A stretch of DNA of 64,000 nt from Candidatus Eiseniibacteriota bacterium (lineage in GTDB: Bacteria; Eisenbacteria; RBG-16-71-46), in the NCBI GenBank assembly GCA_963717935.1, contig CAVQXP010000004.1, positions 1,369,280 to 1,433,279 of the forward strand. Direction: 5' to 3'. The notes under the pieces are model-generated. The model made no database searches, was not told the DNA's origin, and saw only the letters and a list, made by a program, of their open reading frames with translations. Numbering within the stretch: the first letter of the stretch is position 1; the number at the start of each line of letters is the position of its first letter. Of this stretch, positions 1 through 16,024 are shown piece by piece. The translations under genes were made by a program, and so were the position numbers.

Positions 1-1487
1 GGGGCCCGGTCCGCGGCAAACTGCTCTTCCCAGAGCACCACCTGTCGCACGCCGCGAGTGCCTTCTACCCGTCGCCCTACGACGAGGCTGCGGTCCTCAC
101 GGTGGACGGCGTGGGCGAGTACGCCACGACCACGGGCGGACACGGCCGGGGAAGGGACCTGCGAATCACCCGACAGATCGACTTCCCGCACTCACTCGGC
201 CTGCTCTACTCAGCCTTCACCTACCATACCGGCTTCAAGGTGAACTCCGGCGAATACAAGGTCATGGGCCTGGCGCCCTATGGCGAGCCTCGCTATGTGA
301 AGACACTCTATGAGCATATCATCGACGTGCGACCGGACGGCTCGTACCGGCTCGATATGAAGTACTTCGAGTACGCCACCGGCCTGAAGATGACCAGCGG
401 CGCATTCGACGAGTTGTTCGGGCACAAGCCCCGTGATCCCGAGAGCACGCTCACGCAGCACGAGATGGACATGGCCGCCTCCCTGCAGGTCGTCACCGAG
501 GAGGTCATGCTCAAGCTCGCCTGCCACGCGCACGAGCAGACCCGCTCAAAGAACCTGGTGCTGGCCGGTGGGGTCGCGCTCAACTGTGTGGCCAACGGTC
601 GGATCCTGCGGGAGGGGCCTTTCGAGAATGTCTGGATTCAGCCCGCCGCGGGCGATGCCGGCGGCGCGGTCGGCGCGGCGCTCGCGGTGTGGCACATGTA
701 TCTTGGCAATGGGCGCCAGAGCGACGGGCGGACCGACCGCATGAAGGGCGCCTACCTTGGCCCGGAGTTCAGCGACGACGAGGTCGAGCGCCGACTTGCG
801 CGCCTGGGCGCGGTCGCCACGCGCATCCCGGACGACGACGTGCTCTACCGCGAGGCCGCCCGGCTGATCGACGAGGGCAATGTCATCGGCTGGCACCAGG
901 GCCGCATGGAGTTCGGCCCCCGCGCGCTCGGCGCGCGCTCGATCGTGGGTGACGCGCGAAACAAGGAAATGCAGAAGAAGATGAATCTGAAGATCAAGTA
1001 CCGCGAGTCGTTCCGGCCCTTTGCGCCCTCGGTCATGCTCGAGATGGTCAACGAGTACTTCGACCTCGACCGCGAGTCCCCGTACATGCTGCTGGTCGAC
1101 TACGTCAAGAAGGGGCGCCAGAATCCGATGACCGAGGAGCAGGAGCGGCTCTTTGGCATCGACAAGCTGAACATCATCCGGTCTGACATCCCAGCCATCA
1201 CGCACATCGACTATTCCGCGCGTATCCAGACCGTGGACCGCGCCACCGCCCCGCGGTACTGGAACCTGATCAACGCCTTCAAGGAGCGCTCGGGCTACGG
1301 CATCGTCGTCAACACCTCGTTCAACGTTCGCGGCGAGCCGATCGTGTGCACGCCCGAGGATTCGTACCTATGCTTCATGCGCACCGAGATGGACTACCTC
1401 TTCTGCGGGAACTGGATGATGTCGAAGACCGAGCAGCCAAAGCTGCGCGACGACGTCGACTGGCGCCGGCAGTACGAACTCGACTAG
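1..1487 (+). CDS. Carbamoyltransferase, NodU/CmcH family (5' end outside window)
   Basis: Open frame from window start; translation contains EHHLSHAASAFYPSPYDEAAVLTVDGVGEYATTT and the C-terminal carbamoyltransferase region (VNTSFNVRGEPIVCTPEDSY); ORF-track 102..1487 is the in-window portion. Confidence 0.9.
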   Translation, partial: GPVRGKLLFPEHHLSHAASAFYPSPYDEAAVLTVDGVGEYATTTGGHGRGRDLRITRQIDFPHSLGLLYSAFTYHTGFKVNSGEYKVMGLAPYGEPRYVKTLYEHIIDVRPDGSYRLDMKYFEYATGLKMTSGAFDELFGHKPRDPESTLTQHEMDMAASLQVVTEEVMLKLACHAHEQTRSKNLVLAGGVALNCVANGRILREGPFENVWIQPAAGDAGGAVGAALAVWHMYLGNGRQSDGRTDRMKGAYLGPEFSDDEVERRLARLGAVATRIPDDDVLYREAARLIDEGNVIGWHQGRMEFGPRALGARSIVGDARNKEMQKKMNLKIKYRESFRPFAPSVMLEMVNEYFDLDRESPYMLLVDYVKKGRQNPMTEEQERLFGIDKLNIIRSDIPAITHIDYSARIQTVDRATAPRYWNLINAFKERSGYGIVVNTSFNVRGEPIVCTPEDSYLCFMRTEMDYLFCGNWMMSKTEQPKLRDDVDWRRQYELD

Positions 1488-1511
1488 CCCGACCGGAGGA
1501 GGGAGACCACG

Positions 1512-1907
1512 ATGTCGAAAGTCTCTGACTACCAGACGCGCCTCGGCTCCATGCAACTGGCGGGGGCTTTTGCGCTGCTCTTCCTAGTCCTGCATCTGCT
1601 GCACCAACGTTCCGACCCGCTGTTCCTCCACATCGCGGTCGGCTGCCTGGTGCTCGGGGTGTTCTTCTATCGCCTGCTGACGCCGGTCTTCTGGCTCTGG
1701 TCCCGCTTCGGCACGCTCCTCAACAAGGTGATCGGGCCGCTCGTCTTTGGCCTGCTCTTCTACGGCTTCCTGACGCCGATTGCGCTGCTGCGCCGGCTGG
1801 CAGGCGGCAAGGGTCTGCCGACCGGCTTCGCGCCGCCGGGGGAGAGCGCCTGGATCAAGCGCGGGGACGAGCCGTTCAAGCCCGCCGAGTTCGAGAGGCA
1901 GTTCTAG
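1512..1907 (+). CDS. SxtJ-like small polytopic membrane protein (carbamoyltransferase-associated)
   Basis: 131 aa, 3-4 predicted TM helices, immediately downstream of carbamoyltransferase as in sxtI-sxtJ-sxtK-type cassettes; family assignment from recall of that neighbourhood. Confidence 0.55.
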   Translation: MSKVSDYQTRLGSMQLAGAFALLFLVLHLLHQRSDPLFLHIAVGCLVLGVFFYRLLTPVFWLWSRFGTLLNKVIGPLVFGLLFYGFLTPIALLRRLAGGKGLPTGFAPPGESAWIKRGDEPFKPAEFERQF

Positions 1908-1923
1908 CCCGCCGGGTCGCGCG

Positions 1924-3300
1924 ATGACCGATCCCCGGCACGCACGGAACGTCAGGGTCCTCTTCGGGCTCGTCACCCTGGCGGGTTTCGTCACGGTGAT
2001 CATCGGGCTGCTGTTCACCGAGCGGCTGCTCACTCCGTTTGCAGACCACCCGCACATCAATCCGATCAATGTGCGCTACATCCGCCTTGTGCAGATCCGC
2101 TATCTCGTCCTTGGAGCGTCGCTATCCGCGCTCGGGCTGCTGCTCCCACGCATCATCGGGTTCCGGGACTGGCTGGCGGGGCAGCCCCGCGCGATCAACG
2201 TCATCCTGCTGCTGTCCTTCGTCGCGTGGCCGTGCGCGATTCTTGAGCTGGCGCTCTGGGCGCACCCGCAGTTCTCGACCGCCGAGACCCTCAAGCGCTC
2301 GATCAGCTACGTTCCCTCCGCGTTCAGCGTCCACCGCATGGTAGAGCGCGAGCAGACCGTGCTTGCCCCCGACCTGCTGAACCGCAGGCCCATCTACTCG
2401 ATTCGAAATGGCTACCGAAGCCGGCCCTTCGACGTGCGCAAGCCGGCGGGGGAGATCCGCATCTTCATCATCGGCGGGTCCCACGTCCTGGACGCCTGGT
2501 CCTACGGGGAGCAGGACTGGCCCACCGCGACCGAGACCCGTCTGCACGAGCTCGGCTTCCGCAACGTGCGCGTCATCAATGCCGGCACGGCGGGCCACCG
2601 CACCTTCGACGCGCTGGGGCGACTGGTCTCGGAGATCCACCTCTACGCCCCCGACTACGTGGTGCTCTGCTGCACGTACAACGACCTCAAGTTCTTTCCC
2701 TGGGTGAGCCCGGAAAGAACCCTGCTCAAGGGCATCGAGCCGCTGCCGGGCCCGACGCACCGCCCGATCGGGTTCCTGCGCTGGCTGCTCGAACACAGCC
2801 AGCTCTATGTGCGCGCGAGCAACGCCGTTGCACAGCTCACCGGGCGTGTCGCGAAGCAAGCGGGCGGCGACCTCGACGTCGCCCCAACCGAGGGCGGCTA
2901 CCAGGAGATCAGCCCCTACGCGCTGCGGCAGTATCAGCTGCAGCTGCGGGTCTTCGCGGACATTTGCACGAACGCCGGCATCCAGCCGGTATTCTTCACC
3001 GAATCGCGGCTGATCACCCAGGCCAACTACGCCGAGATTGAGAAGAAGGGTGGCTACCGGACCACGATCAGGCTCGCCCCGGGAACCCTGGCCGACACGT
3101 ATCGGCAGTGTGACTCGCTGCTGCGTCTGGTGGCCGAGGAGAAACACGCCTACTTCTTCGATCTGGCGAAGACCGTAAGCGGCATCGAAGCCGACTTCCG
3201 TGACCCGATTCACCTTGAACCACAGGGTAGCGCTGTCGTCGCGGCGAGCGCGGCCGACTACCTTTCCACCATCCTCAAGAAACGAAAGAGCGAGAGGTGA
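1924..3300 (+). CDS. Membrane-anchored SGNH/GDSL-family hydrolase (N-terminal 4-TM domain + SGNH domain)
   Basis: ATG at 1924 within ORF 1780..3300; IFIIGGSHVLD (block I Ser) and DPIHL (DxxH block V) motifs; hydrophobic N-terminus. Confidence 0.7.
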   Translation: MTDPRHARNVRVLFGLVTLAGFVTVIIGLLFTERLLTPFADHPHINPINVRYIRLVQIRYLVLGASLSALGLLLPRIIGFRDWLAGQPRAINVILLLSFVAWPCAILELALWAHPQFSTAETLKRSISYVPSAFSVHRMVEREQTVLAPDLLNRRPIYSIRNGYRSRPFDVRKPAGEIRIFIIGGSHVLDAWSYGEQDWPTATETRLHELGFRNVRVINAGTAGHRTFDALGRLVSEIHLYAPDYVVLCCTYNDLKFFPWVSPERTLLKGIEPLPGPTHRPIGFLRWLLEHSQLYVRASNAVAQLTGRVAKQAGGDLDVAPTEGGYQEISPYALRQYQLQLRVFADICTNAGIQPVFFTESRLITQANYAEIEKKGGYRTTIRLAPGTLADTYRQCDSLLRLVAEEKHAYFFDLAKTVSGIEADFRDPIHLEPQGSAVVAASAADYLSTILKKRKSER

Positions 3301-3303
3301 AGC

Positions 3304-3453
3304 ATGGACTTCCTGACTGACCTGTGGGTGTTCCTCAAGGAACGCAAGAAGTGGTGGCTGCTCCCCGTCATCGTCGTGGTGCTCGTGTTCGGCATCGTCC
3401 TCGTGTTCGGGGGCGCCTCTGCACTCTCGCCGTTCATCTACGCCCTGTTCTAG
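3304..3453 (+). CDS. DUF5989/SxtK-like 49-aa single-TM protein (below ORF-track length cutoff)
   Basis: ATG 3304, TAG 3451-3453; MDFLTDLWVFLKERKKWWLLPVIVVVLVFGIVLVFGGASALSPFIYALF; 3 nt after upstream stop; typical companion of the carbamoyltransferase/SxtJ pair. Confidence 0.55.
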   Translation: MDFLTDLWVFLKERKKWWLLPVIVVVLVFGIVLVFGGASALSPFIYALF

Positions 3454-3670
3454 CAGCACGGAGCGTAGGGCGGGGGGGGGACGTCGGCGCGCGATCGAAA
3501 TCACACTCACCATGGGTCTGACTGCCCCCGCTGCTGCGCCCCCCACGCCGGGCGTCCGGGGCGCGGCGCGCTTGCGTGCCAGTGGGTCCGCAGGAAGGCC
3601 GGCATGTGGCCGGGGTCCGCGCGTTCCGGCAAGTTGCCGCCGTCAGGTCGCCTCTTTCACCCGTACCAAA

Positions 3671-3675
3671 GCCGG
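3671..3675. repeat. Putative 5-bp target-site duplication (gccgg), left copy; right copy at 5905-5909
   Basis: gccgg immediately flanks both IS termini (aaaGCCGG|tgtca ... tgaca|GCCGGgag). Confidence 0.45.
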
Positions 3676-3748
3676 TGTCATCGGTCATGCAAAAGTCCCC
3701 ACTTGCGGTCAGTGAAAGTTCCCCACCCGCACCGAGAGGAGGAGCGGG

Positions 3749-5074
3749 ATGGCAGAGCAGCAAGTGGAGGAGCGTGGGACCATGGGCGCCGAGGGATTGG
3801 CCCTCGGGGAGGAACGCATGGTCCGGGAAGACCGTTGGCAGGAGATCCACCGACTGCATCGTGACGAGGGCGTGCCGATCGCCGAGATCGCCCGCCGGCT
3901 GGAGCTCGACCGCAAGACCGTCCGCCGCTGCCTGAGCCAGGGGGCGTGGCAGCCCTACCAGCGGCCGATCCGCACCGACACGCTACTCGCCGAACATGCC
4001 GAGCACCTGCGGCGCCGGGCGCCCGAGGTCCACTACTCGGCCCAGATCCTGTTCCAGGAGCTGCGCCAGCGCGGCTACGGGGGTAGCTACCCGACGGTGA
4101 AGCGGTTCGTGCAGCCGCTGCGCCGGGCCGAGACGCTGGCCGAACGGGCGACGGTGCGCTTCGAGACCCCGCCGGGCCAGCAGAGCCAGATCGACTGGGG
4201 CTCGAGTCGGGCGCGCTTCCGCCATGAACCGGTGGTCCTGCACTGGTTCGTGCTGACCCTGGGCTACAGTCGGCGCAGCTACTTCGACGTCGCGCTCAAC
4301 GAGCAGTTGCCCCAGTTCCTCGACGCCCACGAGCGCGCCTTCGATCACTTCGGCGGCCGCACCCGCGAGCACCTCTACGACCGCCCACGCACCATCTGCA
4401 GCCCGGCCGGGGACGGGACGGTGATCTGGAACTCGACCTTCAAGAGCTTCGCCGACTACTGGGGCTTCGAGGCCCGGCTGTGCCGGCCCTACCGGGCCCA
4501 GACCAAGGGCAAGGTCGAGTCGGGGGTCAAGTACGTGAAGCACAACTTCGTGCCGGGGCGCGACTTCGTCGACCTGCTCGACACCCGCGAGCAACTGGCC
4601 GAGTGGAACGCCACCATCGCCGACCTGCGCGTGCACGGCACCACCCATGAGCGGCCGCTCGACCGCTTCGCGGTTGAGCGTGGCCATCTGCTGCCCACCA
4701 CCCAGCACCCCAGCTACCGGCTCGAGACCCGCTACGGCCGGATCGTGGCCGACGACTACCTGGTGAGCCTCGACACCAACCGCTACTCGGTGCCCTTCAC
4801 CCTGATCGGCCAGACCGTGGAGGTCGAGCGCCGTGCGGGCGAGGTGCGGATCCACCACGCGGGCCGGCTGGTGGTGGCCCACTCCGAGCTCAGTGGCCGT
4901 CACCAGGTACGCGTGCTGCCCGAGCATGGACCCGGCGCCAGCGCCCGCAACCCCCGCCTGCGCAGCTCCACGGCGCCGGCGACGACGTCGCTCCACCAAC
5001 CCCACGGACTCGACGTCGAGGTCCGCGACCTGGCGCTCTACGAGGTGCTGTGCGGCCCGGGAGGTGAGGCATGA
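3749..5074 (+). CDS. istA: IS21 family transposase IstA
   Basis: 441 aa; N-terminal HTH (EDRWQEIHRLHRDEGVPIAEIARRLELDRKTVRRCL), DDE integrase core; GAGGAGG RBS 6 nt upstream of ATG 3749. Confidence 0.9.
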   Translation: MAEQQVEERGTMGAEGLALGEERMVREDRWQEIHRLHRDEGVPIAEIARRLELDRKTVRRCLSQGAWQPYQRPIRTDTLLAEHAEHLRRRAPEVHYSAQILFQELRQRGYGGSYPTVKRFVQPLRRAETLAERATVRFETPPGQQSQIDWGSSRARFRHEPVVLHWFVLTLGYSRRSYFDVALNEQLPQFLDAHERAFDHFGGRTREHLYDRPRTICSPAGDGTVIWNSTFKSFADYWGFEARLCRPYRAQTKGKVESGVKYVKHNFVPGRDFVDLLDTREQLAEWNATIADLRVHGTTHERPLDRFAVERGHLLPTTQHPSYRLETRYGRIVADDYLVSLDTNRYSVPFTLIGQTVEVERRAGEVRIHHAGRLVVAHSELSGRHQVRVLPEHGPGASARNPRLRSSTAPATTSLHQPHGLDVEVRDLALYEVLCGPGGEA

Positions 5075-5847
5075 ACCCGCTCCAACTCGAGCGCCTGAGC
5101 GAGCAGTTGCAGCGACTGCGGCTGTTCAAGAGCCGCGAACGGCTCGAGGCCCTGCTCCAGGAGGCCAGCGGTGAGGAACTGAGCTACGCCGACTTCCTCG
5201 ACCGGCTGCTCACCGAGGAGGTCACCTCCAAGACCGCCAAGAACGTCACCATGCGCACCAGCCTGGCCCGCTTCCCGTTCGTCAAGAGCCTCGAGAGCTT
5301 CGACTTCGGCTACCAGCCCTCGATCGACAAGAAGCAGCTCCAGACCCTGGCCAACTGCCACTTCATCGAGCACGGCGAGAACGTGCTCCTGCTCGGGCCC
5401 CCGGGCGTCGGCAAGACTCACCTGGCCGTCGGACTGGGCTTGAAGGCCATCGAGTGCGGCTACCGAGTGCTGTTCACCACCGCCGCCGGCATGATCGCCG
5501 CCCTCGGCAAGGCCCTGGCCGAGGGCCGGCTCGACGAGAAGCTCAAGCTCTACACCGTGCCACGGCTCTTGATCATCGACGAGATCGGCTACCTGCCCAT
5601 CGACCAGACCGGCGCCAACCTGTTCTTCCAACTCATCAGCCGGCGCTACGAGAAGGGGCCGATGATCCTCACCAGCAACCAGAGCTTCGGCAGCTGGGGC
5701 GACGTCTTCGGGGACCGGGTCATCGCCGCCGCCATCCTCGACCGGGTCCTCCACCACGCCGTCACCGTCAACATCCGCGGCAACAGCTACCGGCTCAAGG
5801 ACCGCCTCAAGGCCGGGCTGCTGCAGCCGGCCGAGACCGTCAGCTAA
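5071..5847 (+). CDS. istB: IS21 family helper ATPase IstB
   Basis: 258 aa; Walker A GPPGVGKTHLA, Walker B LLIIDEIGY; start overlaps istA stop (ATGA). Confidence 0.9.
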   Translation: MNPLQLERLSEQLQRLRLFKSRERLEALLQEASGEELSYADFLDRLLTEEVTSKTAKNVTMRTSLARFPFVKSLESFDFGYQPSIDKKQLQTLANCHFIEHGENVLLLGPPGVGKTHLAVGLGLKAIECGYRVLFTTAAGMIAALGKALAEGRLDEKLKLYTVPRLLIIDEIGYLPIDQTGANLFFQLISRRYEKGPMILTSNQSFGSWGDVFGDRVIAAAILDRVLHHAVTVNIRGNSYRLKDRLKAGLLQPAETVS

Positions 5848-5993: not shown

Positions 5994-7070
5994 TCACGGG
6001 CGAACCTTTGCTGCCAGCCGGCGGGCTAGATCCTTGGCCGACTGCCAGGGCGTCTCGCCGCGGATCCCCGCGGTTCCCAGACGGATTTGCTGCCAGAGCA
6101 ACGAATAGAACAGGTTGGACCCGTCGAACAACCGATTCGGATCTCGAAGCTTCCAGGCCAGCATCTGGCGCAACCAGGGCGGATAGACGGCTTGAAATGC
6201 CCCGAGGGATTCTCTCGTAAAGCTCCGGACGATCCTCCACGCCTCGTCCCTCGCCTCGAATGGCAGATCTTCATGGGATCTCCGGGTCCCCACGCTCAAC
6301 GCCAACAACCGCCAAGCCGATATCCTCCGCAAGTGAGATGTGCCCGCGGACCGCTCCTCTGCAATCTGAGCCAGCACGCCCAAAGCCCGATAACAACTCG
6401 AAAACCGGACTATATCCATCCGGCGGTGCTGCGCAGAATCAGGTCGATGACACGCATGATAGAACACCTCGTCCACATAGCCCACACGCTTGGCTGAACG
6501 CAACGCCCGATGCAAGAAGATGCTATCCTCGTAATTGCTGAAGTCCTCCGGAAAGCGCAATGCGCCGAAGCGCTCTCGTGAGAAGAGCTTTGTGCAACAA
6601 CTCAATCCCGCTCTGATATACGCTCTCGCGGCTTCCGTATCATCCGCCATGTCCGAGATCCCTGAAAACGAGCGAACCGGCATCGCCTCTCCCGGCCCCT
6701 CCTTGCCGAAGGTGAGCCGACAACCAACCAAATCGCACTGCCCGTCCCCGGCCAGGGCGCACAGCCGCGTGTACATCTCGGGCTCTATCCAGTCATCCGC
6801 ATCGACAAAACCAACCCAACGGCCGCGTGCCACGTCCAAGCCCCGGTTGCGTGTAGACGAAACCCCCAGGCGCGAGGGGTTGTTCAGTAGGCGAATGCGC
6901 GGATCGTTCGCGGCAATAGCGGTCAAGATAGGCAGGCCGGCATCCCCCTCCCCATCGACCACGAAGATGAATTCGATGTCGGCAAGGGTCTGGCGTAGCA
7001 GAGAGTCCACGCATGTCCGCAACATCTCATCGGGCACTTGATACACTGGAACAACGACGGACACCTTCAT
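5994..7070 (-). CDS. Glycosyltransferase family 2
   Basis: MKVSVVVPVYQ...DADD motif; ATG at 7070 inside ORF 5994..7103; converges on the IS. Confidence 0.8.
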   Translation of the reverse strand: MKVSVVVPVYQVPDEMLRTCVDSLLRQTLADIEFIFVVDGEGDAGLPILTAIAANDPRIRLLNNPSRLGVSSTRNRGLDVARGRWVGFVDADDWIEPEMYTRLCALAGDGQCDLVGCRLTFGKEGPGEAMPVRSFSGISDMADDTEAARAYIRAGLSCCTKLFSRERFGALRFPEDFSNYEDSIFLHRALRSAKRVGYVDEVFYHACHRPDSAQHRRMDIVRFSSCYRALGVLAQIAEERSAGTSHLRRISAWRLLALSVGTRRSHEDLPFEARDEAWRIVRSFTRESLGAFQAVYPPWLRQMLAWKLRDPNRLFDGSNLFYSLLWQQIRLGTAGIRGETPWQSAKDLARRLAAKVRP

Positions 7071-7888
7071 GTCGTGTGCCCACGATCGATGTGCCCGGCC
7101 CATCTTCCGGGCGTACGAGCAGGCGGGAAAGACCGAGCGCAGTTCGGCAGCGGGGGCGGGGCGACGCGGATGCGCCGGCGCATGGCTTCGCTAGCAGGGT
7201 GCAACAACAGGTCTCCTGCAGCACTGGAGCCCAGCAGGCGCGCGCGAGGGAAATCGTTGACGACAACCGGTGCGCATGGCACCGGTCCGTTCAGCCAGCG
7301 AAGAGCCTCGATCATCGAGCGGACCATGTCGGACGAAGCAACTGCCTCTTCTCGCTCCTCTCGGCCTTCCGTGGAGCTTGGAGATGCGTTGACGGGGTGT
7401 GGCGGCCCGGTCGATCCACGGCCTCTCTTCTCCTACAAAGAGAGAGGGCCGGCAGGGTGAACCAGGAACTGGGCGATTGTGTCGCGACGTATCTCGGATT
7501 GCAAGGGTGCGCGGTGGTGGCGACGGCGCTCGTGCGACATCCCCGGCGCGGATGGGCGGCCGGCGGTGTCGTGCACGCGGCCGCCGGTCGCCGCGGTGCC
7601 CGGTGCTCTGGGCTCGTCCAGTTTGATGAAATCACTGCGGCATTTGTGCAGCAGATCGGCGGCAGCACGAGCGCGCGGGAGAGTGCCCCTGAGCCCGCGG
7701 TCATGAGGCATTCTGGCCAATCCGCTGAACCGGCCTCGCTGAGCGGGCAGCGAGCTGGGTCTTCAGAGGTTGCGAGGGCGTGGGGGCTGTTGAGCGCGGA
7801 TCGGAAGGGATGCTAGGCTCGGGATCGTTCGTGCCGTTCCCCGTCCTTCCACCACTTCTTCGTAGACGTCAGCGTATGGAGGCGTTGA

Positions 7889-9724
7889 ATGCCGGGCCTG
7901 ATGATTGTCGTCGGACCTCCGCCCTCGGGCCTCCTACCGGCCGAAACTGAGTGGCTCACGCCGGAAGCCGCGTGTGCGCGTGAACAGGTGTACGCGGGGC
8001 CACGCACCGAAGTCACCTTCGCCGCCCCACCCCACTACCCACGCCTGTCTTCCTCGAGTCCCGACTTCGAGTTGTTCGTCGAGGGACTGGTCTATGACCG
8101 GACCGATGACGAGCTGGTGGTCTTCGCCACCGAGCTTGCCCGAGTGGCACTCGCCGGCAGGCCGATCGATGAGCCCGTCCGCAGTTTCATGGCTGAAACG
8201 GATGGCGAGTACGTGTTCCTGCTCGTCCTCAAGCCGAGCGGTCGGGTGATTGTCTTCAACGATCCCTGGGGGCGCTTGCCGCTCTACACCGCCCAAACGC
8301 CTGCTGTGTTCCTGCTCGGTCGGGAACCAAAGGACCTGCTCGCTTATCTGCCCGAGATCCGCTTCGACCGCTACGCGATCACCGAATGGCTGGCATTCGA
8401 ATACACACTGAACCCGCGGTGGTTCGTGGAAGGTGTCGCTCAGGTGCCACCCGCGACGCTCTTTGACGTCACCGTCGGCGATGGCGCCGTGCGCGCCGCG
8501 CGGGAGGTCCTCATCGCCCAGGACTTCAGCGTGACCACGCCGCTCCGTGACCGCGCCGAGGCGGTCCGCCGCTACGCGGCGCACTACCTCGATGCCTACG
8601 CGGCACGCGTTGCCAAGCTCACCGAGCAGGGTTTCAGGCTCACCGCCGACCTGAGCGGGGGCTTCGACACGCGCGCCGTCTTCGCCGGCGCGCGCCGGCT
8701 CGATGCCCCGGTCGAGTTCTACACCGACGAACTGGTCACCGGCGACGAGACCGCCGCCGCCACTCGCCTGGCTGAGGCCGGCGGGGCGAGCGTGGTCCGA
8801 GTGCGCGGCGGCGGGTTCACGCGTGATGCCGCCGAGTGGCGTCGCGCTACGTTCCTGACCGGTGGTCGCGTGAACTGCAACACGATGATGGGAGCAGTGC
8901 TGCTCTCGCGGAGGCGCAAGGAGATCCTCAAGGACCGGGTCGCCCGGTTCATGGGCTTTGGCGGAGAGCTGGTGCGCCGGCCGTACGTGCAGCCCCACGG
9001 CTATCGGAGTTTTTCCGAGGCTCTCGCCGACGACGTGTACACGCGATACATCAAGGTCGCGGACGGCTGCCGACTGCTCGGTCTCGAGGCCCCCGGATTC
9101 CGGCAGCGCATGGCCGGCGCGGTGGAGGGCTGGAACGAGCGCAACGACGCGAACCGCGCCCGACGGCTCTACTTCGTGTTCCACTACGGGTTGGTCAATG
9201 CGGGAGAGGACCGCCAGCGCTGGTACTTCTGGACCGTGACCCCGATGTGGGCCCGCCCTGTGGTGCAATTCGCCTACCGTCGGCTCGAAGCGCAGGCGGT
9301 CGGCTACCCATTCTTCGTCGAGATGCTGCGGAGCATCTACCCGCAGGCGCTCGAACCCCCGCTTCACGGCAACCCCACCAACCTGACTTCCCGGTTCGAG
9401 GTCTGGTTTTACGCCGCCAAGACGGAATTGCTGGTGCAGTTGCGCAATCTCCGTGTCTATCGCCGTCTGCGCCGTGCCCTCTCACCCCGCGAGCGCTGGG
9501 CCATGCTGGCGACCAAGGAGGAGTTCGCCTGGTTCCGCGAGCAATTCGAGGCGACGTTCCGCGAGAGCAAAGCGGTGCGCGCCACGTTTGACGAGGCCGC
9601 GGTCATGGCGTTCGTGCAGCCCACCCAGGCGACCCAGCGTCTCAACCAGTTGCTGACGTCCGTCTACTTCGTGGCTGAGGTCGGCAAACGATTCTCCACG
9701 GTGCGGCTGGACCGCCAGCCTTGA
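7889..9724 (+). CDS. Asparagine synthetase B-like protein lacking the N-terminal Cys nucleophile (synthetase-domain PP-loop SGGFDTR present)
   Basis: 611 aa; begins MPGLMIVVG (no Cys2); AsnB N-domain pattern DGEYVFLLVL...GRLPLYTA; LSGGFDTR PP-loop; GGAGG RBS 7 nt upstream. Confidence 0.7.
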   Translation: MPGLMIVVGPPPSGLLPAETEWLTPEAACAREQVYAGPRTEVTFAAPPHYPRLSSSSPDFELFVEGLVYDRTDDELVVFATELARVALAGRPIDEPVRSFMAETDGEYVFLLVLKPSGRVIVFNDPWGRLPLYTAQTPAVFLLGREPKDLLAYLPEIRFDRYAITEWLAFEYTLNPRWFVEGVAQVPPATLFDVTVGDGAVRAAREVLIAQDFSVTTPLRDRAEAVRRYAAHYLDAYAARVAKLTEQGFRLTADLSGGFDTRAVFAGARRLDAPVEFYTDELVTGDETAAATRLAEAGGASVVRVRGGGFTRDAAEWRRATFLTGGRVNCNTMMGAVLLSRRRKEILKDRVARFMGFGGELVRRPYVQPHGYRSFSEALADDVYTRYIKVADGCRLLGLEAPGFRQRMAGAVEGWNERNDANRARRLYFVFHYGLVNAGEDRQRWYFWTVTPMWARPVVQFAYRRLEAQAVGYPFFVEMLRSIYPQALEPPLHGNPTNLTSRFEVWFYAAKTELLVQLRNLRVYRRLRRALSPRERWAMLATKEEFAWFREQFEATFRESKAVRATFDEAAVMAFVQPTQATQRLNQLLTSVYFVAEVGKRFSTVRLDRQP

Positions 9725-10026
9725 TCGCCCGGTGCGCCGTGAAGAAGCGCATGTCCCCAGCGGGTGTGAGTCCTGCCCGGCGGTTGTTGCTCCAGTCGGT
9801 GGCAAATCGGAGCGTCACGAGAGGCCATGAACTCGGCGAAGCCTCTGATGCAGGGGGGCACTGCAGGGTGAGCCGGCGAGCAGGCAGGCCGTGACGCGAG
9901 AGATTGCCGCGCAGGCCTCGAAAGGGATGCCGCGGAAGCCGACTCCGCTGCGTCTGGCGGAGCGCGGCCGAGGCAAAATCCGGGAGCTCCTCGCTCCAGC
10001 CTGGCTCTCCCGGACCTGAATCTCCA

Positions 10027-11268
10027 TCAGGCTCCGGGCGCGGACGGCTCCGGTCTCGGCGCCCGGAGGGAGAACTCCGCGTAGACCCGCTCCAGTCTCT
10101 CGGCGATGATGGCCCAGGAGTACTGGCGTGCCCGTTCGCGCAGGGCGGCCGGGTCCCAGGTGCGGCTGAGGGCGGCGTCGAGCGCGATGGCGAGTGCCGC
10201 TGCGTCCCCGGCCGGGACCAGCAGCCCATGCCGGTCCCGCTCCACGATCTCCCGAGTGCCTCCAACGGCGGAACTCACCAAGGGACGGCCCGCGGCCAGC
10301 GCTTCAAGGGCGGCAAGCGGCATGCCCTCGTTCATGCTGGGCAGTGCCACGACGTCGGCGGCGGCGAGGAGATCGGGAACTCGGCCGAAAGGCACCGGAC
10401 CGAAAAGACGTACGTGTTCGCCGAGGCCGCACAACCGGACTTGTGCTTCGAGCTCCGACCGGAGCGGGCCATCACCGACGATTGCCAGCGTTACGTCCCG
10501 GCGCCTTTCGCGCACCGCGCGGAAGGCATCGATCAGCACCCGGTGCCCCTTCACGGCCACGAGGTTGCCGACGCTTACAATCAGGTGGCCGGCGGCCGGC
10601 AGGCCCAGCGCGCGCCGGCCCGCGTCCCGATCGCCCGACTGGAAGGACTCCACGTTCACCCCGTTCGGGACATAGCGCAGGCACCGCTCTTCTACGCCGA
10701 GGTTCCTCGCGATGTCCAGGAGCTCACGCGAGACCACGACCACGCAGTCAGCCCGTCGGAGCGCCCAGCGGCTCCAGTGCCGGGTCCTCCACGGTCCCCG
10801 GATGGCTTCCGTGTGGAGATCCGAGCCGTGTGCCGTAATCACCGCGGGCAGGCCGCTGGCACGGGCCACGAGGACTGCGGCAAGCCCCATCGGGTACAGG
10901 CGATGTCCATGCACGACACAGGCATCGCGCGCATGCCGCAGTCGGACCCACAGGCCGATCAGGAACAACTGGAGCGGCTCCGTGAACACAAATAGCAGCG
11001 GAACGTGGATGTATCGTGGCCGCAGGACACGCAGCCCCGCGGTCGTCTGGTCGTCTTGCCGGCCAGCGGCGTTCTGCGCGGCCATGCGCCGCTCGCTGGC
11101 GTAGCGGGGCAGAGGCGGCAGCAGAATCTCGGGGGAAACCACGGTCACGCGCCAGCGTTGTGCGAGGACGTGCACTTGCTGGGATACCGAGAGGCGCACC
11201 CCCCCATTCAGTCGATGGGGCGGAAGGAAACCCTGGGTGAAGAGCAGCACATGTGGGGTGCGGTCCAT
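10027..11268 (-). CDS. Glycosyltransferase family 4
   Basis: ATG at 11268 (MDRTPHVLLFTQGF) inside ORF 10027..11358; C-domain motifs GLPAAGHLIVSVGNL...MNEGMPLAALEALAAGRPLV. Confidence 0.8.
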   Translation of the reverse strand: MDRTPHVLLFTQGFLPPHRLNGGVRLSVSQQVHVLAQRWRVTVVSPEILLPPLPRYASERRMAAQNAAGRQDDQTTAGLRVLRPRYIHVPLLFVFTEPLQLFLIGLWVRLRHARDACVVHGHRLYPMGLAAVLVARASGLPAVITAHGSDLHTEAIRGPWRTRHWSRWALRRADCVVVVSRELLDIARNLGVEERCLRYVPNGVNVESFQSGDRDAGRRALGLPAAGHLIVSVGNLVAVKGHRVLIDAFRAVRERRRDVTLAIVGDGPLRSELEAQVRLCGLGEHVRLFGPVPFGRVPDLLAAADVVALPSMNEGMPLAALEALAAGRPLVSSAVGGTREIVERDRHGLLVPAGDAAALAIALDAALSRTWDPAALRERARQYSWAIIAERLERVYAEFSLRAPRPEPSAPGA

Positions 11269-11596
11269 GGAGGCACGTTCCCTGTGGAAGCAGTGCCGCT
11301 TGCGGCACCAAGGCACCCACATAGCCCTAGCCCGCCAGCGCATCCCTGTCAAGGTCACGAGCCCGAAGGTTCTCGCGACCGGTCATTTTTCACGACTGGA
11401 ACAGGGGCCGGCTGGCGCGCGGGAGGCCCGCAGGCCCCACCCTTTGCGGCGAGCGTGATCGGCGACCGGAGGGACCTCCTGTGCTAGGATTGCGCACGCG
11501 AATTCATCGCGTCCCTTGGGGGTTTGAGCGCCCGCTTTCCCCCGTCACCCGAGGGGGGTCTTATCGCCCATCCTCAATCGTGAGCACCCATCTCCA

Positions 11597-13147
11597 ATGA
11601 GTCCGCTTTCCGACCCCGAGGTTCCCCCCGCGACGCCGCTCCCGTCTGGAGTTGGCAAGGGCCACGCACCGCAGATTCTCCACAACACGGGCGTGCTGGC
11701 CATCTCGGGGCTCTTCGTGCGCGGCATGGGGATGGTGATGATGGTGATCCTCGCTCGCAGCTTGGGGGCGGAGGGCTACGGCACCTACCAGCGCGCGGAA
11801 GCATTCGTCTACATGTTCAGCATCCTGGGGAGTCTCGGGCTGGACATGATCCTCACCCGCGAGGTTGCCCGCCGCGGTGCTCGAGCCCCCGAATACCTGA
11901 CGGGGGTCCTGATCCTCAAGCTGCTGCTGGCTCCCCTGTGCTTCGCGCTCATCCTCGGCTTCGCGTATGCACGCGGCTACCACGGGGAGTTCCTCTGGGG
12001 TATCTGGTGCTACAGCTTCGTCTTGTTCCTGACCACGACCGCACAAACCTGCGACGCGTACTTCCAGGGGCTCGACGAGATGGGCTACATCGCGATCACG
12101 AACATCGCCAATCAGCTGGCTTTCGTGGCCCTGGGAGGTGCCTGCGTCTGGCTCGGCAAGGACCTGCGCTGGATCCTCTCGGCGCTCGTCGTGGCGGCGG
12201 CGGTTCGGCTGATCGTCTCCACCTACATCATAACGCGCCTGCGGCTCCTGTTCGCGAAGCCCCGGCTGGGCACCCTCCTCTATCTGCTCAGGCAGTCCAT
12301 CCCCATCGCGTTCGCGGCCAGCTTCGTCATCGTGTACCAGCAACTGGACGCCGTGCTGCTGGGCGAGCTCAAGGGCAATACCCAGGTCGGCTGGTACAAG
12401 GCCGGCGTCAAGTTCCTCCTCTTCTTCACGGTTCTGCGCGAGAGCTTCCTGGTCGCGGTCTATCCCGTATTCGCCTCGGTCGCGCAACGCGGCCGCGAGC
12501 ACATGGGCACCCTGGTGACCCGCGCGGTGCGCTACCAACTGATCATAGCGCTGTACTTCATCATCTGCTTCGTCGTCCTTCCGCGGGTGGCCCCCACGCT
12601 GCTTGGGGACGCGTTCGCGAACACCGCTGCGATTCTCCCCATCATGGCGTTGATGCTCGTGCCGCAGACCATCAGCATCACCATGGGACGCGTGCTCGTC
12701 GCCTCTGGCAACCAGAAGCGCATCATGGCTGCGACCGGACTCGCGCTGGTCGTGAACGTGGCGCTCAACCTGTCCCTCATCCCGCGATTCGGCTACATGG
12801 GGGCGGCCGCCGCCGCTGCGACCAGCGAACTGGCGGTGGCCAGCATGAACGTATACTATGTGCAACGCTACGTGGCCCGCACCCAGATCCTCCGGGCGAT
12901 CCTGCGGCCGGTCGTCGCGGCCGCGATGACCGGCGGCGTGCTTTACCTGTTGCCCGGCCTGCATCTCTACCAGGCGCTGCCGCTGGCGGGGATCTTCTAC
13001 GTTGCCGGTCTCTTTGCCCTGCGCACCTTCTCTACCGAGGAGTTGAGCCAGTTCCGGACCGCTCTCCAGTCGGCGTGGGCGCGGTTGTGGAAGAACGGCG
13101 GGGGTACGGGTGGTGGCATCGACCCCGGTATGTCCGCGGGGGTCTAA
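11597..13147 (+). CDS. wzx: Wzx-type oligosaccharide flippase (MOP superfamily polysaccharide biosynthesis protein)
   Basis: 516 aa, ~12-14 TM helices, typical PST-family composition. Confidence 0.8.
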   Translation: MSPLSDPEVPPATPLPSGVGKGHAPQILHNTGVLAISGLFVRGMGMVMMVILARSLGAEGYGTYQRAEAFVYMFSILGSLGLDMILTREVARRGARAPEYLTGVLILKLLLAPLCFALILGFAYARGYHGEFLWGIWCYSFVLFLTTTAQTCDAYFQGLDEMGYIAITNIANQLAFVALGGACVWLGKDLRWILSALVVAAAVRLIVSTYIITRLRLLFAKPRLGTLLYLLRQSIPIAFAASFVIVYQQLDAVLLGELKGNTQVGWYKAGVKFLLFFTVLRESFLVAVYPVFASVAQRGREHMGTLVTRAVRYQLIIALYFIICFVVLPRVAPTLLGDAFANTAAILPIMALMLVPQTISITMGRVLVASGNQKRIMAATGLALVVNVALNLSLIPRFGYMGAAAAAATSELAVASMNVYYVQRYVARTQILRAILRPVVAAAMTGGVLYLLPGLHLYQALPLAGIFYVAGLFALRTFSTEELSQFRTALQSAWARLWKNGGGTGGGIDPGMSAGV

Positions 13148-13245
13148 GGGGATGACGCTCGCCATCCGGCAAGCGGATTGGCACGGGCCCCCGCCCGAGC
13201 CGCTGCGTGCGGACTCACGGGCAGGCCGAGGAGACCTGGACGTCC

Positions 13246-14799
13246 ATGAACCCGCTTCCCGCTGATTCCGTCCCCGTCCGCCTCCCGCACTACCGGCTGC
13301 GGGACGGCGGGTTGTACTTCCTCATCTCCCAGCGGCCCGTGGCCGTGCTCAACGCCCACGAGCAGGAGGTGTGGGAGTCGTTGGATGGCTCGGTCCGCGT
13401 ACGGGACTTGGCCGCCCGTTTTCCCGCCGGGGCTGGCGAGGCCGCGCTCCGCCGGTTCGTGGAGCTCGGAGTCTGTCTGCCGATCGCGACGAGCTTCCCC
13501 GAGGGACGTCGGCGGGTCGTAGTCATCGAGCCCCACATGGACGACGGCACGCTGAGCCTGGGCGGGACGATGTGGAGCCGTCGCGCGCAGTGCGAGTTCA
13601 CCATCGTCACGGTCGCGGGCCGCTGTAACTTCACGAGCTACTACTACCTCGAGCGCGACTACTTCGACGTGGACGAGGTGTCGGCGCTGCGCCGGGCCGA
13701 GAGCGCACTGGTGGCACGCGCCATCGGTGGGCGCCACGTGGTGCTCGACCTGCCCGAGGCGCCGCTGCGCTACCGGGCCGGGAACTGGGCCCTGGACTGG
13801 TACCGCCGGCACCGCGCCTCGATCTCGGCCTTCATCAGCCACACCTCGGGGCCCGAGGAGCTGCGCGCGTGGACCGAGGCGATCCGGCAGGCGCTGCGCG
13901 AGCTGCCGGCCGACGAGGTGTGGATGCCCATCGGCGTGGGCCCGCACACCGATCACGAGCTCACCCGGAACGCCTCCCTGACCCTCCTGGCGGAGGATCC
14001 GGAGTTGTTTTCGCGGTGCGCGGTCCGCCTCTACCAGGAGGTGCCCTACGCCGCGCGGTTCCCGCGCTTCACGGCTGCGATCGTGGAGGAGTTGACGCGC
14101 TCCGGCGCGAAGCTCGAGATCGAGAGGGTCCCCGTCACGGAGGCGTTCCCCGACAAGCTGCGGCTCATCTCGTACTTCGGCTCCCAGTTCAAGCTCCAGG
14201 TCCTGCGACCGGACATCGAGGCCTCGGCCCGAGCTGCCGCCGGCGACGGCGGCGGGATGGCGGAGATTCTCTACCGCGTCGTGGCCCCGCCGAAACGCCT
14301 GGATTTCTTGGCGCTCTCCGTGGGCGCGCCGGAGGTGCGGCAGCTGGCGCAGGAACTCGGGCCCTGGATCGAGCGGCACCGGCGTGCCCGTCGGATTCGC
14401 GTGTTCATCCGCCCGCCTGCGGGCCGCTGGGTGGAGGACATGCAGTTGTTGCTGGACGCCTTCCCTGCGGCCCGCTTCGCTGTCCGAGCCTCCAGGGCAG
14501 CGCTGGCGGAGGCGACGGAGGTCCGCTCCCCGCGCATCGAGGTCAGTCCCATCGGCCAGGGCGCCGCCGCGTGGGTGCTGGGCGTGTCTGGCGCCAACCT
14601 GCGGGGGCCCGCGCCCACCCTCATGATCGCGTTCGCAGACCGCATGCGTGAGGGCCGCCGCCTGAGCATGCTGCTTCCACTGAGTGACACGCTGGTCGTG
14701 CCCAGCATGAACCACCTCGCGCTCGCGCTGCGCCTCCTGGCGGACGTCGACGACCCCCGGCGAGCGTCGGAAGATCCGAAGGGATCCGCCGGGCCCTGA
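13246..14799 (+). CDS. Fusion protein: N-terminal PqqD-like (RRE-type) domain + PIG-L/LmbE-family zinc deacetylase + ~200-aa C-terminal extension of unknown function
   Basis: PqqD-like segment HYRLRDGGLYFLISQRPVAVLNAHEQEVWESLDGSVRVRDLAARFP...AEAALRRFVELGV; PIG-L motifs VVVIEPHMDDGTLSLGGTM and GVGPHTDHELT; ATG 13246 (alternative GTG 13207). Confidence 0.65.
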   Translation: MNPLPADSVPVRLPHYRLRDGGLYFLISQRPVAVLNAHEQEVWESLDGSVRVRDLAARFPAGAGEAALRRFVELGVCLPIATSFPEGRRRVVVIEPHMDDGTLSLGGTMWSRRAQCEFTIVTVAGRCNFTSYYYLERDYFDVDEVSALRRAESALVARAIGGRHVVLDLPEAPLRYRAGNWALDWYRRHRASISAFISHTSGPEELRAWTEAIRQALRELPADEVWMPIGVGPHTDHELTRNASLTLLAEDPELFSRCAVRLYQEVPYAARFPRFTAAIVEELTRSGAKLEIERVPVTEAFPDKLRLISYFGSQFKLQVLRPDIEASARAAAGDGGGMAEILYRVVAPPKRLDFLALSVGAPEVRQLAQELGPWIERHRRARRIRVFIRPPAGRWVEDMQLLLDAFPAARFAVRASRAALAEATEVRSPRIEVSPIGQGAAAWVLGVSGANLRGPAPTLMIAFADRMREGRRLSMLLPLSDTLVVPSMNHLALALRLLADVDDPRRASEDPKGSAGP

Positions 14800-15254
14800 G
14801 GAGGTGCGCCGTCGAGGCGTGCCGCCGCAGCGCAGCGCGTGTTCTTCGAGTCGTTGCCCGGGCTGCGGATGCGGCAGTCGATGGTCCGCCATGCTAGAAT
14901 CACTCGATGCCCAGGCAGAACCGGCGCCCGCCCTCGCGGCCATCCCGATGGTGGAGGACGGGTGACCAGGAGCGATGCGAGGCCCCTCGGGTTGGCTCCC
15001 GCGGCCGTTCCGGTTCCCATGTGGCTGGTTCCACGCCATCGAGATTTGCCACGACGATGCGGCCTTCGGCCCCGGCGATGTCGGAGTAGCGGGTCGGTTG
15101 GGCGGCGAATCTCGCAGACCGGGGCCTTGCGTGCTAGTCTCGGCTAGAAATGGGCTGCTTGCGCTCCGAATCAGGATTCGAGGCGCGGGTGGTTTTGTGT
15201 GGCCGGATTTCGAGTCTCTTTCAAGACAGGCGTGGACACGTGGACAACTTCTCG

Positions 15255-16024
15255 ATGGCGCTCGTCGGGCCCTATCCGCCTCCCCGTGGCGGGTATTGGT
15301 CCACCTCACGCGTTTCCAGCGGCGACTCGCCGCTCTGGCCATCCCGTCGTGGGCCTGCTACCAGCCTTTGCCCACATCGGGCCCCGAGGAGCACGTTATC
15401 CCGGCTGCCCGCAGGTTCTCCCGGCATTGCTGGATTCCTGAGCATGCGCGGCGACGCAGCACGAGCACCGTGCACCTTGGCTCGTACTGGGCGCCGGCCG
15501 CGCGTGCGATGCTTTTGCACCGCAAGAAGGTCGTCATGACCTTCCACGATCAACAAAGGGGGGGCAGGATGTGGCAGGCCACCTCATGGCTGGAACGATG
15601 GGTGAGCCGGTGGCCCTTCCGACACCTGCGGGTCTGGTGGGTTGTCGCGAGCCGGGAGGTGAGGTGGCAGTTGATCGAGAGGGGGGTGCCTCCGGCAAGG
15701 ATCTCGATGGCCCCTGCCTGCATCTCGCCCCGGGCTGGCGCACACGCATCGAGCCTGCCCGCCTACGTCGGGGACTTCCTCCAGAGGTATTCTCCTGTGC
15801 TGTCAGGCTACGCTTGGAGGCTGACCCGCGATGCGCGGGGCGTCGGCGTCTATGGGTTCGACCATTACATCGAGATGATTCGGTCGCTCAAGGCCGACCT
15901 CCCGAAGATCGGTCTGGGGCTCTCGCTGCCGCGGGTCTCCGACATCGACTACTTCCGCGCCCTGAAGGCGCGTGTCGACGACAACTTCCCACCACTCCTG
16001 GATCTCTACCGTGCGATCGCATAG
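15255..16024 (+). pseudogene. GT4-family glycosyltransferase remnant: frameshift after the N-terminal MALVGPYPPPRGG motif and truncated (lacks C-terminal EX7E half)
   Basis: MALVGPYPPPRGG in one frame (15255-15293), continuation VLVHLTRFQRRLAALAIP...KKVVMTFHD...ASREVRWQLIERGVPPARI in ORF 14975..16024 frame; ends after only ~100 aa of C-domain. Confidence 0.4.

Follow-up and report, generated by a model that had tools for sequence, protein, structure and literature searches.

A cysteine-less AsnB-like protein and a three-domain PIG-L deacetylase in a polysaccharide locus of a Candidatus Eiseniibacteriota bacterium

In the Wbp/Vim pathway of P. gingivalis, WbpS turns a uronic acid into a uronamide, VimE de-N-acetylates, and VimA attaches Ser or Gly (PMC7468200). 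Here we discuss a 64,000-nucleotide stretch from a Candidatus Eiseniibacteriota bacterium (contig CAVQXP010000004.1, positions 1,369,280 to 1,433,279; hereafter the window), in which a gene for a homologue of AsnB and a gene for a PIG-L deacetylase with two additional domains lie on either side of genes for a GT4 glycosyltransferase and a Wzx-type flippase. The initial annotation considered that this combination could not be assigned to a described pathway, but an analogue has been described: the Wbp/Vim locus likewise contains Wzx together with an AsnB-type enzyme and a sugar de-N-acetylase (WbpS and VimE, with VimA; PMC7468200).

We consider it probable (roughly 0.68) that the two genes encode tailoring enzymes that are soluble, cytoplasmic and independent of each other and belong to a Wzx/Wzy-dependent heteropolysaccharide locus of the O-antigen, capsule or exopolysaccharide type, and that they form neither an obligate pair nor a module for a ribosomally synthesized peptide that is modified post-translationally (RiPP). 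The window, which has a GC content of about 68%, contains genes for GT2 and GT4 glycosyltransferases, Wzx, Wzy, an initiating transferase (Bac_transf) and sugar-nucleotide enzymes, and is therefore classed as a Wzx/Wzy-dependent polysaccharide locus; the genes around the pair were defined by codon-position GC and Pfam matches. Transmembrane segments were predicted in neither protein. Because each of the two families occurs alone in ordinary polysaccharide clusters, we regard the proteins as separate sugar-modifying enzymes and not as a hidden peptide module. The present finding is a refinement of the annotation, not a new system.

Distribution of the two genes

Forty-five deacetylase loci were compared, namely that of the window and 44 from other genomes or contigs, with flanks of up to 10 kb on each side and with their open reading frames (ORFs) clustered. 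An AsnB-like gene of the window's type, the product of which begins Met-Pro-Gly (MPG), is found near the deacetylase in only one of the other 44, that of the Eisenbacteria genome MFD05942; a few loci hold a canonical AsnB in its place. Examination of 80 metagenomic loci of the AsnB-like gene revealed the deacetylase nearby in three, every one within a clade of at least 64% identity. It is absent from loci at 53% identity with flanks of 5-10 kb, and every locus at 32% identity or less lacks it as well. The narrow lineage of the window is thus the only one in which the two genes occur side by side. Both families occur independently in ordinary Wzx/glycosyltransferase loci, which the initial annotation had itself named as an outcome that would refute its reading. 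In the window itself the GT4 gene between them is on the minus strand, and the two genes are therefore not in one operon.

An exhaustive profile search for the AsnB-like family yielded 737 clusters at 50% identity (E <= 1e-30); a word-indexed search had recovered only 26 relatives. Ninety-three of 128 full-length representatives (~73%) begin with MPG and none with MCG, Gly3 is present in nearly all, and the motif SGGxD[ST] is found in 123. These figures indicate that the loss of the Cys is ancient and family-wide, and that the adenylating site has been conserved. Pro2 takes the nucleophile position, where true N-terminal nucleophile (Ntn) amidotransferases have M-C-G, and it is kept, not random. 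The N-terminal Pro, once Met is removed, could itself be functional. Throughout the family the genes reside in glycan loci, with Wzx (19 loci, median distance 70 bp), GT4, SDR, DegT, Epimerase_2, hexapeptide transferases and GT2 as neighbours; a PP-loop NAD_synthase-like protein is also among the usual ones.

For the deacetylase the homologues number at least 191, come from about ten phyla and reach down to 42% identity. They align over 94-100% of its length; the three-domain architecture is therefore old and not a recent fusion. The nearest genomic relatives are from two Candidatus Eisenbacteria metagenome-assembled genomes (88% and 79% identity). Geomonas limicola Red745 (locus L051) is a cultured bacterium with a gene of this family. 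The homologues always lie within Wzx/glycosyltransferase loci, where GT2, GT4, Acyl_transf_3, hexapeptide acyltransferases, Wzx and Wzy are the usual neighbours. At two loci (L033, 9917-11509; L035, 9657-11239) the N-terminal domain and the remainder of the deacetylase are in separate ORFs, which in L033 share a frame and are separated by one stop codon; the gene could be split naturally or be a pseudogene, or the sequence could be in error.

Both proteins belong to sizeable, apparently uncharacterised families of known enzyme kinds, which recur in the surface-polysaccharide loci of many environmental phyla and carry only the database labels "LmbE family deacetylase," "asparagine synthase" or "hypothetical protein."

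The AsnB-like protein and the three-domain deacetylase

The AsnB-like ORF starts MPGLMIVVG and is preceded by GGAGG 8 nt 5′ of the ATG. Its codon-position GC (0.69/0.48/0.83) is that of a truly coding gene. The protein has no Cys2 nucleophile, the N-terminal Cys of glutamine-dependent AsnB and WbpS-type enzymes; its PP-loop motif, SGGFDTR, is intact. Together with the predicted fold described below, these features bear out the initial description of a 611-residue, Cys2-less AsnB-like enzyme with a PP-loop. S256, G257, G258, D260 and R262 of the motif are invariant in the family alignment, and the PP-loop and some 27 further positions are invariant among sequences down to 22% identity. The domain layout comprises a degenerate Ntn-type N-terminal domain (residues ~1-210) followed by a PP-loop adenylating domain (~220-611).

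Curated sequence models recognize this protein poorly. It scores 14.1 bits (E = 0.039) with Pfam Asn_synthase (PF00733; cut-off 21), 20 bits with GATase_7 (cut-off 25), 36.8 bits (E = 2e-9) with TIGR01536 (cut-off 267) and 23.6 bits with TIGR03108 (cut-off 817). With the lasso-type model NF033561 the score is 23.7 bits (E = 1.6e-5) against a cut-off of 300, which is not the score of a lasso cyclase. The profile of the AsnB-like family reaches E. coli AsnB in the PDB at E = 0.077 only. An AlphaFold2 model built with 22 homologues has a mean predicted local distance difference test score (pLDDT) of 90.3 and a predicted template modelling score (pTM) of 0.92. In a Foldseek comparison with the PDB, the best match is TsnB9 (PDB 7ylz; E = 2.5e-17; template modelling scores 0.64/0.67), and the others include beta-lactam synthetase, carbapenam synthetase, E. 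coli AsnB and human ASNS. For TsnB9, the two synthetases and AsnB the E-values are 1e-13 to 1e-17 and both domains are covered. On the evidence of the predicted structure, the protein is a member of the AsnB superfamily at the level of fold (Ntn-type domain plus PP-loop domain).

The deacetylase starts with the ATG at 13246, which is shared by all homologues, and its codon-position GC also gives a strong coding signal. The AlphaFold2 model (pLDDT 91.3, pTM 0.90) consists of three domains. The central one passes the gathering threshold of PF02585 (40.2 bits against 28.2; residues 105-258 as numbered from a GTG at 13207) and has the PIG-L fold of family 14 carbohydrate esterases (CE14). The HxDD and HxxH motifs are both present, and H97, D99, D100, H234, D236 and H237 are invariant in 37 of 37 sequences. 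The C-terminal domain is a five-stranded alpha/beta domain of ~150 residues (~361-501 in the model) with a GRWxxD motif and other invariant residues; Pfam and NCBIfam gave no significant match to it, and a profile search of PDB sequences gave none. The initial annotation of a complete PIG-L domain followed by an unknown domain is thus sustained. A degenerate duplication of the PIG-L domain was considered as the origin of the C-terminal domain and rejected (hhalign probability 5%).

The first ~85 residues of the deacetylase had been likened initially to PqqD, the fold of the RiPP recognition element (RRE). In sequence searches this likeness fails: PF05402 does not match the window protein even at E <= 10 and matches only two of 28 family members (best E = 0.069), and the NCBIfam PqqD-family models and a profile search of PDB sequences found no match to this domain. 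Such failures are weak evidence where this fold is concerned, because a genuine PqqD profile, used as a control, retrieves solved lasso-peptide RREs at E = 0.006-1.5 only. When family alignments were compared by hhalign with a reference made from ten annotated pqqD genes of plasmids, the match was in register over 55 columns with 28 sequences (P = 1.3e-3, probability 18%) and over 60 columns with 37 sequences (P = 2.3e-4, probability 44%). None of 400 column shuffles of the 28-sequence run reached the observed 22.3 (mean 10.9, sd 2.3, maximum 21.0).

The AlphaFold2 model places strands at residues 9-12, 16-19 and 22-25 and then helices at 37-45, 52-57 and 60-74, with block-mean pLDDT values of 88-95 over residues 1-80. 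This is the order of three beta strands and three alpha helices reported for RREs (PMC12710340), and the RRE paper cautions that so small a fold is prone to high false-positive rates. The resemblance suggested by profile and model is real but weak, and the N-terminal domain may be called PqqD-like by fold; membership of the family and peptide binding are both unproven. A targeted full-text literature search found no paper pairing PqqD with LmbE or an RRE with PIG-L, and a 2025 survey of RREs mentions no deacetylases in its text or in one of its supplements. The sole unusual element of the locus is that a glycan deacetylase carries an RRE-like domain.

Intergenic regions and neighbouring genes

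The features of the locus are collected in Table 1.

Table 1. Coordinates of the genes, domains and motifs discussed in the text
Feature	Position	Strand	Remarks
IS21-family element (IstA with rve and Mu-transposase C-terminal domains; IstB)	3749-5847	+	
GT2 glycosyltransferase	5994-7103	-	Pfam Glycos_transf_2, E = 8.6e-28
Non-coding divergent-promoter region	7104-7888	.	Flat codon-position GC
Promoter-like ATGCTAGGCTC	7810-7820	+	
AsnB-like gene	7889-9724	+	611 aa
PP-loop motif SGGFDTR, residues 256-262	8654-8674	+	
Rfam RF02003 (group II intron D1-D4-4) match	9758-9899	+	50 bits, gathering score 49; E = 6.5e-9; full model covered
GT4 glycosyltransferase	10027-11358	-	Pfam Glycos_transf_1, E = 3.7e-38; Glyco_transf_4, E = 2e-18
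Wzx-type flippase	11597-13147	+	Pfam Polysacc_synt, E = 1.1e-44
Three-domain PIG-L deacetylase gene	13246-14799	+	517 aa
PqqD-like N-terminal domain (predicted)	13246-13491	+	AlphaFold2 secondary structure; hhalign against genuine PqqD
PIG-L/LmbE zinc de-N-acetylase domain, residues ~88-350	13507-14295	+	
HMDD	13534-13545	+	PIG-L domain
HTDH	13945-13956	+	PIG-L domain
Orphan Rossmann-like alpha/beta C-terminal domain (predicted), residues ~351-502, then disordered tail and stop	14296-14799	+	AlphaFold2
Intergenic region after deacetylase gene	14800-14974	.	Aligned three ways with L008 and L003
Conserved promoter-like ATGCTAGAATC	14891-14901	+	Kept in L008 and L003
ORF of 349 aa, weakly GT4-like	14975-16024	+	Pfam Glyco_transf_4, E = 1.1e-6
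SDR and RmlD-like genes	from 16064 on		

The region 5′ of the AsnB-like gene was described initially as free of genes, and we find no coding signal in it: an ORF at 7013-7816 has a codon-position GC of 0.69/0.62/0.68. The gap measures 785 bp in the window versus 366 bp in the relative L003, and large parts of it have no L003 counterpart in the alignment. A block of ~190 nt (~7350-7540), with the core GATTGTGTCGCGACnnATCTCGGnTTGCAAGGGT at 7475-7508, is conserved between the two; Rfam has no match for it, and it may be regulatory. The 455-bp gap initially placed after the deacetylase gene (14800-15254) is perhaps only ~175 bp long, because the ORF at 14975-16024 is conserved in the Eisenbacteria relative L008 (52% amino acid identity over 365 residues). 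Only its first part, 14800-14974, stands as intergenic. Fragments of this ORF are all that tblastn finds in L003, and it may be a decaying glycosyltransferase gene.

The sequence ATGCTAGNNTC is present in exactly two copies in the window (7810 and 14891), where 0.09 are expected. Both are intergenic, both are located ~80 nt 5′ of plus-strand start codons, and both resemble promoter elements of the extended -10 kind. At 15132 there is a related sequence, TGCTAGTCT. These promoter-like motifs and the opposite-strand GT4 gene argue for separate transcription units.

No convincing precursor ORF had been noted in either gap, and a listing of small ORFs and the alignments with relatives agree. The candidates of 20 or more residues in 7104-7888 and 14800-15254 have translations rich in Arg, Pro and Gly, as is typical of non-coding high-GC DNA. 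After the deacetylase gene, L008 and L003 differ by 1-2-nt indels that interrupt all frames; the candidates in the upstream gap were also set aside, the L003 intergenic region being much shorter and alignable only in part. Near the deacetylase in the 45 loci there is no conserved small ORF, only out-of-frame shadows of larger genes. A search of the neighbours for a leader peptidase, protease or other RiPP gene found glycan-pathway genes only. Neither the precursor and B/B2 peptidase that accompany a lasso cyclase nor the cluster-encoded leader peptide that accompanies an RRE was found.

Among the neighbouring genes, the GT2 gene is divergent from the AsnB-like gene and has a counterpart at the same position in L003. 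The AsnB-like and GT4 genes are convergent. A plus-strand ORF at 9904-10995 was tried as the GT4 gene and rejected, having no Pfam match, in favour of the minus-strand ORF of Table 1. Between the AsnB-like and GT4 genes the window has a gap of ~300 bp, in which the group II intron match of Table 1 sits; L003 lacks this gap, its two genes overlapping by 4 nt. There is no space for an intron-encoded protein, so that the match may be what is left of an intron or may be no better than chance; it is not part of the enzyme pair. Farther genes in the window include Polysacc_synt_2, Epimerase_2, Wzy (minus strand), GT2, the Bac_transf transferase and additional GT4 genes. The IS21 element is inserted in the polysaccharide locus just past the 3′ end of the GT2 gene, where L003 has a GT4 gene and small genes. 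The ORF at 102-1487 (plus strand) encodes a carbamoyltransferase of the NodU/CmcH type, the N-terminal domain of which covers profile positions 156-346 only; it appears truncated at the 5′ end, or there may be an upstream frameshift. A further 611-residue ORF (38817-40652), considered as a paralogue of the AsnB-like gene, encodes a ClC chloride channel.

Proposed roles and comparison with known systems

If the two proteins are independent tailoring enzymes, the PP-loop domain of the AsnB-like protein would adenylate the carboxylate of a sugar or of a sugar substituent, and an amine not derived from glutamine would attack the adenylate to give an amide, with free ammonia, an amino acid or an amino sugar as candidates. 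The PIG-L protein would remove the N-acetyl group from an N-acetylhexosamine in a cytoplasmic intermediate, which would be a nucleotide sugar or a unit linked to undecaprenyl diphosphate. De-N-acetylation would precede flipping by Wzx, and the freed amine might be re-acylated or might contribute positive charge. Known PIG-L enzymes act on N-acetylglucosamine attached to an aglycone or a lipid. The PqqD-like and Rossmann-like domains would be integral accessory modules, most likely holding the non-sugar part of the substrate or docking a partner protein.

Several points weigh against this scheme. There is no uronic-acid dehydrogenase among the annotated genes of the window. The functions proposed for the two outer domains of the deacetylase are inferred only. 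The scheme does not account for Pro2 being kept almost strictly in an Ntn domain that is taken to be dead. In the window's lineage, moreover, linkage of the two genes is kept across three arrangements: a syntenic one (L003, 11-kb JGI contig), a rearranged one (L066), and one in which they are adjacent and divergent (L069, 53-57% identity). In the last of these, a distant metagenomic relative, they are direct divergent neighbours at 697-4272 with 207 bp between them. That the linkage survives rearrangement is a hint that they share some role here.

Such a role could be that of a coupled deacetylase and ligase, following the logic of MshB/MshC, BshB/BshC and VimE/VimA: the PIG-L enzyme would free a sugar amine, and the AsnB-like enzyme would adenylate a carboxylic acid (amino, organic or uronic) and join it to that amine, giving an unusual N-acyl sugar in the polysaccharide of this lineage. 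In the mycothiol and bacillithiol pathways ATP-dependent amide ligases do act after PIG-L deacetylases, and a dead glutaminase domain makes an amine other than glutamine-derived ammonia plausible. In a glycan pathway, VimE and VimA work on the same principle (PMC7468200), and all three arrangements keep the genes within 5 kb, including the divergent one. Against this stand the 77 of 80 AsnB-like loci that lack such a deacetylase, loci at 53% identity with 5-10 kb flanks among them, the 43 of 44 other deacetylase loci that lack an MPG-type AsnB-like gene, and the separate transcription units found here, so that we hold the coupled scheme to be unlikely. We also regard as rather improbable a variant in which the RRE-like domain is a real peptide-binding module with a role other than RiPP biosynthesis. 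Its ligand would be an extended segment from a partner protein (for example a glycosyltransferase, Wzx, Wzy, or a protein destined for attachment of the glycan), by which it would direct de-N-acetylation within the assembly complex, the AsnB-like ligase then using the freed amine in the window's lineage. Were the domain to bind peptide, the RRE fold would gain a role outside RiPP pathways, and genome-mining tools that flag RiPPs by their RREs would need to filter out this deacetylase family.

That one or both proteins are inactive, the AsnB-like one a pseudo-enzyme or the deacetylase a structural subunit of an assembly complex, would be congruent with the lost glutaminase site and with scores below every curated family threshold for the AsnB-like protein. 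It is very doubtful given the invariance of the PP-loop and its ~27 companion positions, that of the zinc-binding and catalytic motifs of PIG-L, and the strong coding signal of both genes. The least probable reading, and a highly improbable one, is the cryptic RiPP-like or peptide-guided module put forward initially, in which the PqqD-like domain would serve as a genuine RRE and bind a precursor leader, the AsnB-like protein a lasso-cyclase-like enzyme or peptide amidase, and the deacetylase an enzyme acting on a glycopeptide. Lasso cyclases are likewise Cys-less homologues of AsnB, and both the in-register similarity to PqqD and the match to NF033561 point faintly in this direction. That match is less than a tenth of the cut-off, however, and neither the gaps nor the 45 deacetylase loci provide a credible small ORF. 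A leader peptidase and other RiPP enzymes are absent, both families are found in glycan loci everywhere, and the two genes are not conserved partners. A sugar de-N-acetylation guided by a peptide or a carrier, which the initial annotation raised as well, is a possibility. Independent tailoring of a surface polysaccharide accordingly remains the reading that we prefer, and the MPG family becomes a candidate for the unknown enzymes that add amide-linked substituents to bacterial glycans.

With respect to known systems, the N-terminal domain of the deacetylase is weakly similar to PqqD and RREs (PF05402) in its profile-profile match. It differs from them in falling under every curated hidden Markov model threshold, in having no precursor peptide or RiPP enzyme as a partner, and in being fused to a carbohydrate deacetylase. 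The described CE14 enzymes, namely MshB, BshB, Dbv21/Orf2*, diacetylchitobiose deacetylase and eukaryotic PIG-L, are single-domain proteins of ~220-310 residues. Unlike these, the window's family always has an extra N-terminal domain of ~80 residues and the ~150-residue alpha/beta domain at its C-terminus, and is encoded in Wzx/glycosyltransferase loci.

The AsnB-like protein shares with beta-lactam synthetase, carbapenam synthetase and the lasso cyclases the two-domain AsnB fold, a dead glutaminase domain and a PP-loop; theirs is active and makes an amide by way of an acyl-adenylate. The two synthetases are among the best structural matches to its model (E ~1e-15 to 1e-17). These enzymes form intramolecular amides and belong to antibiotic or RiPP clusters, whereas the AsnB-like family belongs to polysaccharide loci; identity to such Cys-less paralogues is only ~13-17%, and the conserved MPG start is particular to the AsnB-like family. 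The hydroxyamidotransferase TsnB9, though the best structural match, is 13-14% identical and serves trichostatin biosynthesis, an unrelated context.

Its family assignment indicates that WbpS has the glutamine-hydrolysing Cys; at that position the window protein has Pro2, and its score with TIGR03108 is very low. VimE is a CE4 enzyme and the window deacetylase a PIG-L enzyme. What the window shares with WbpS, WbqG and PGN_1234 (eps_aminotran_1, TIGR03108), the AsnB-type amidotransferases of O-antigen and Wbp/Vim loci, is a gene of the AsnB superfamily that adjoins Wzx and glycosyltransferases.

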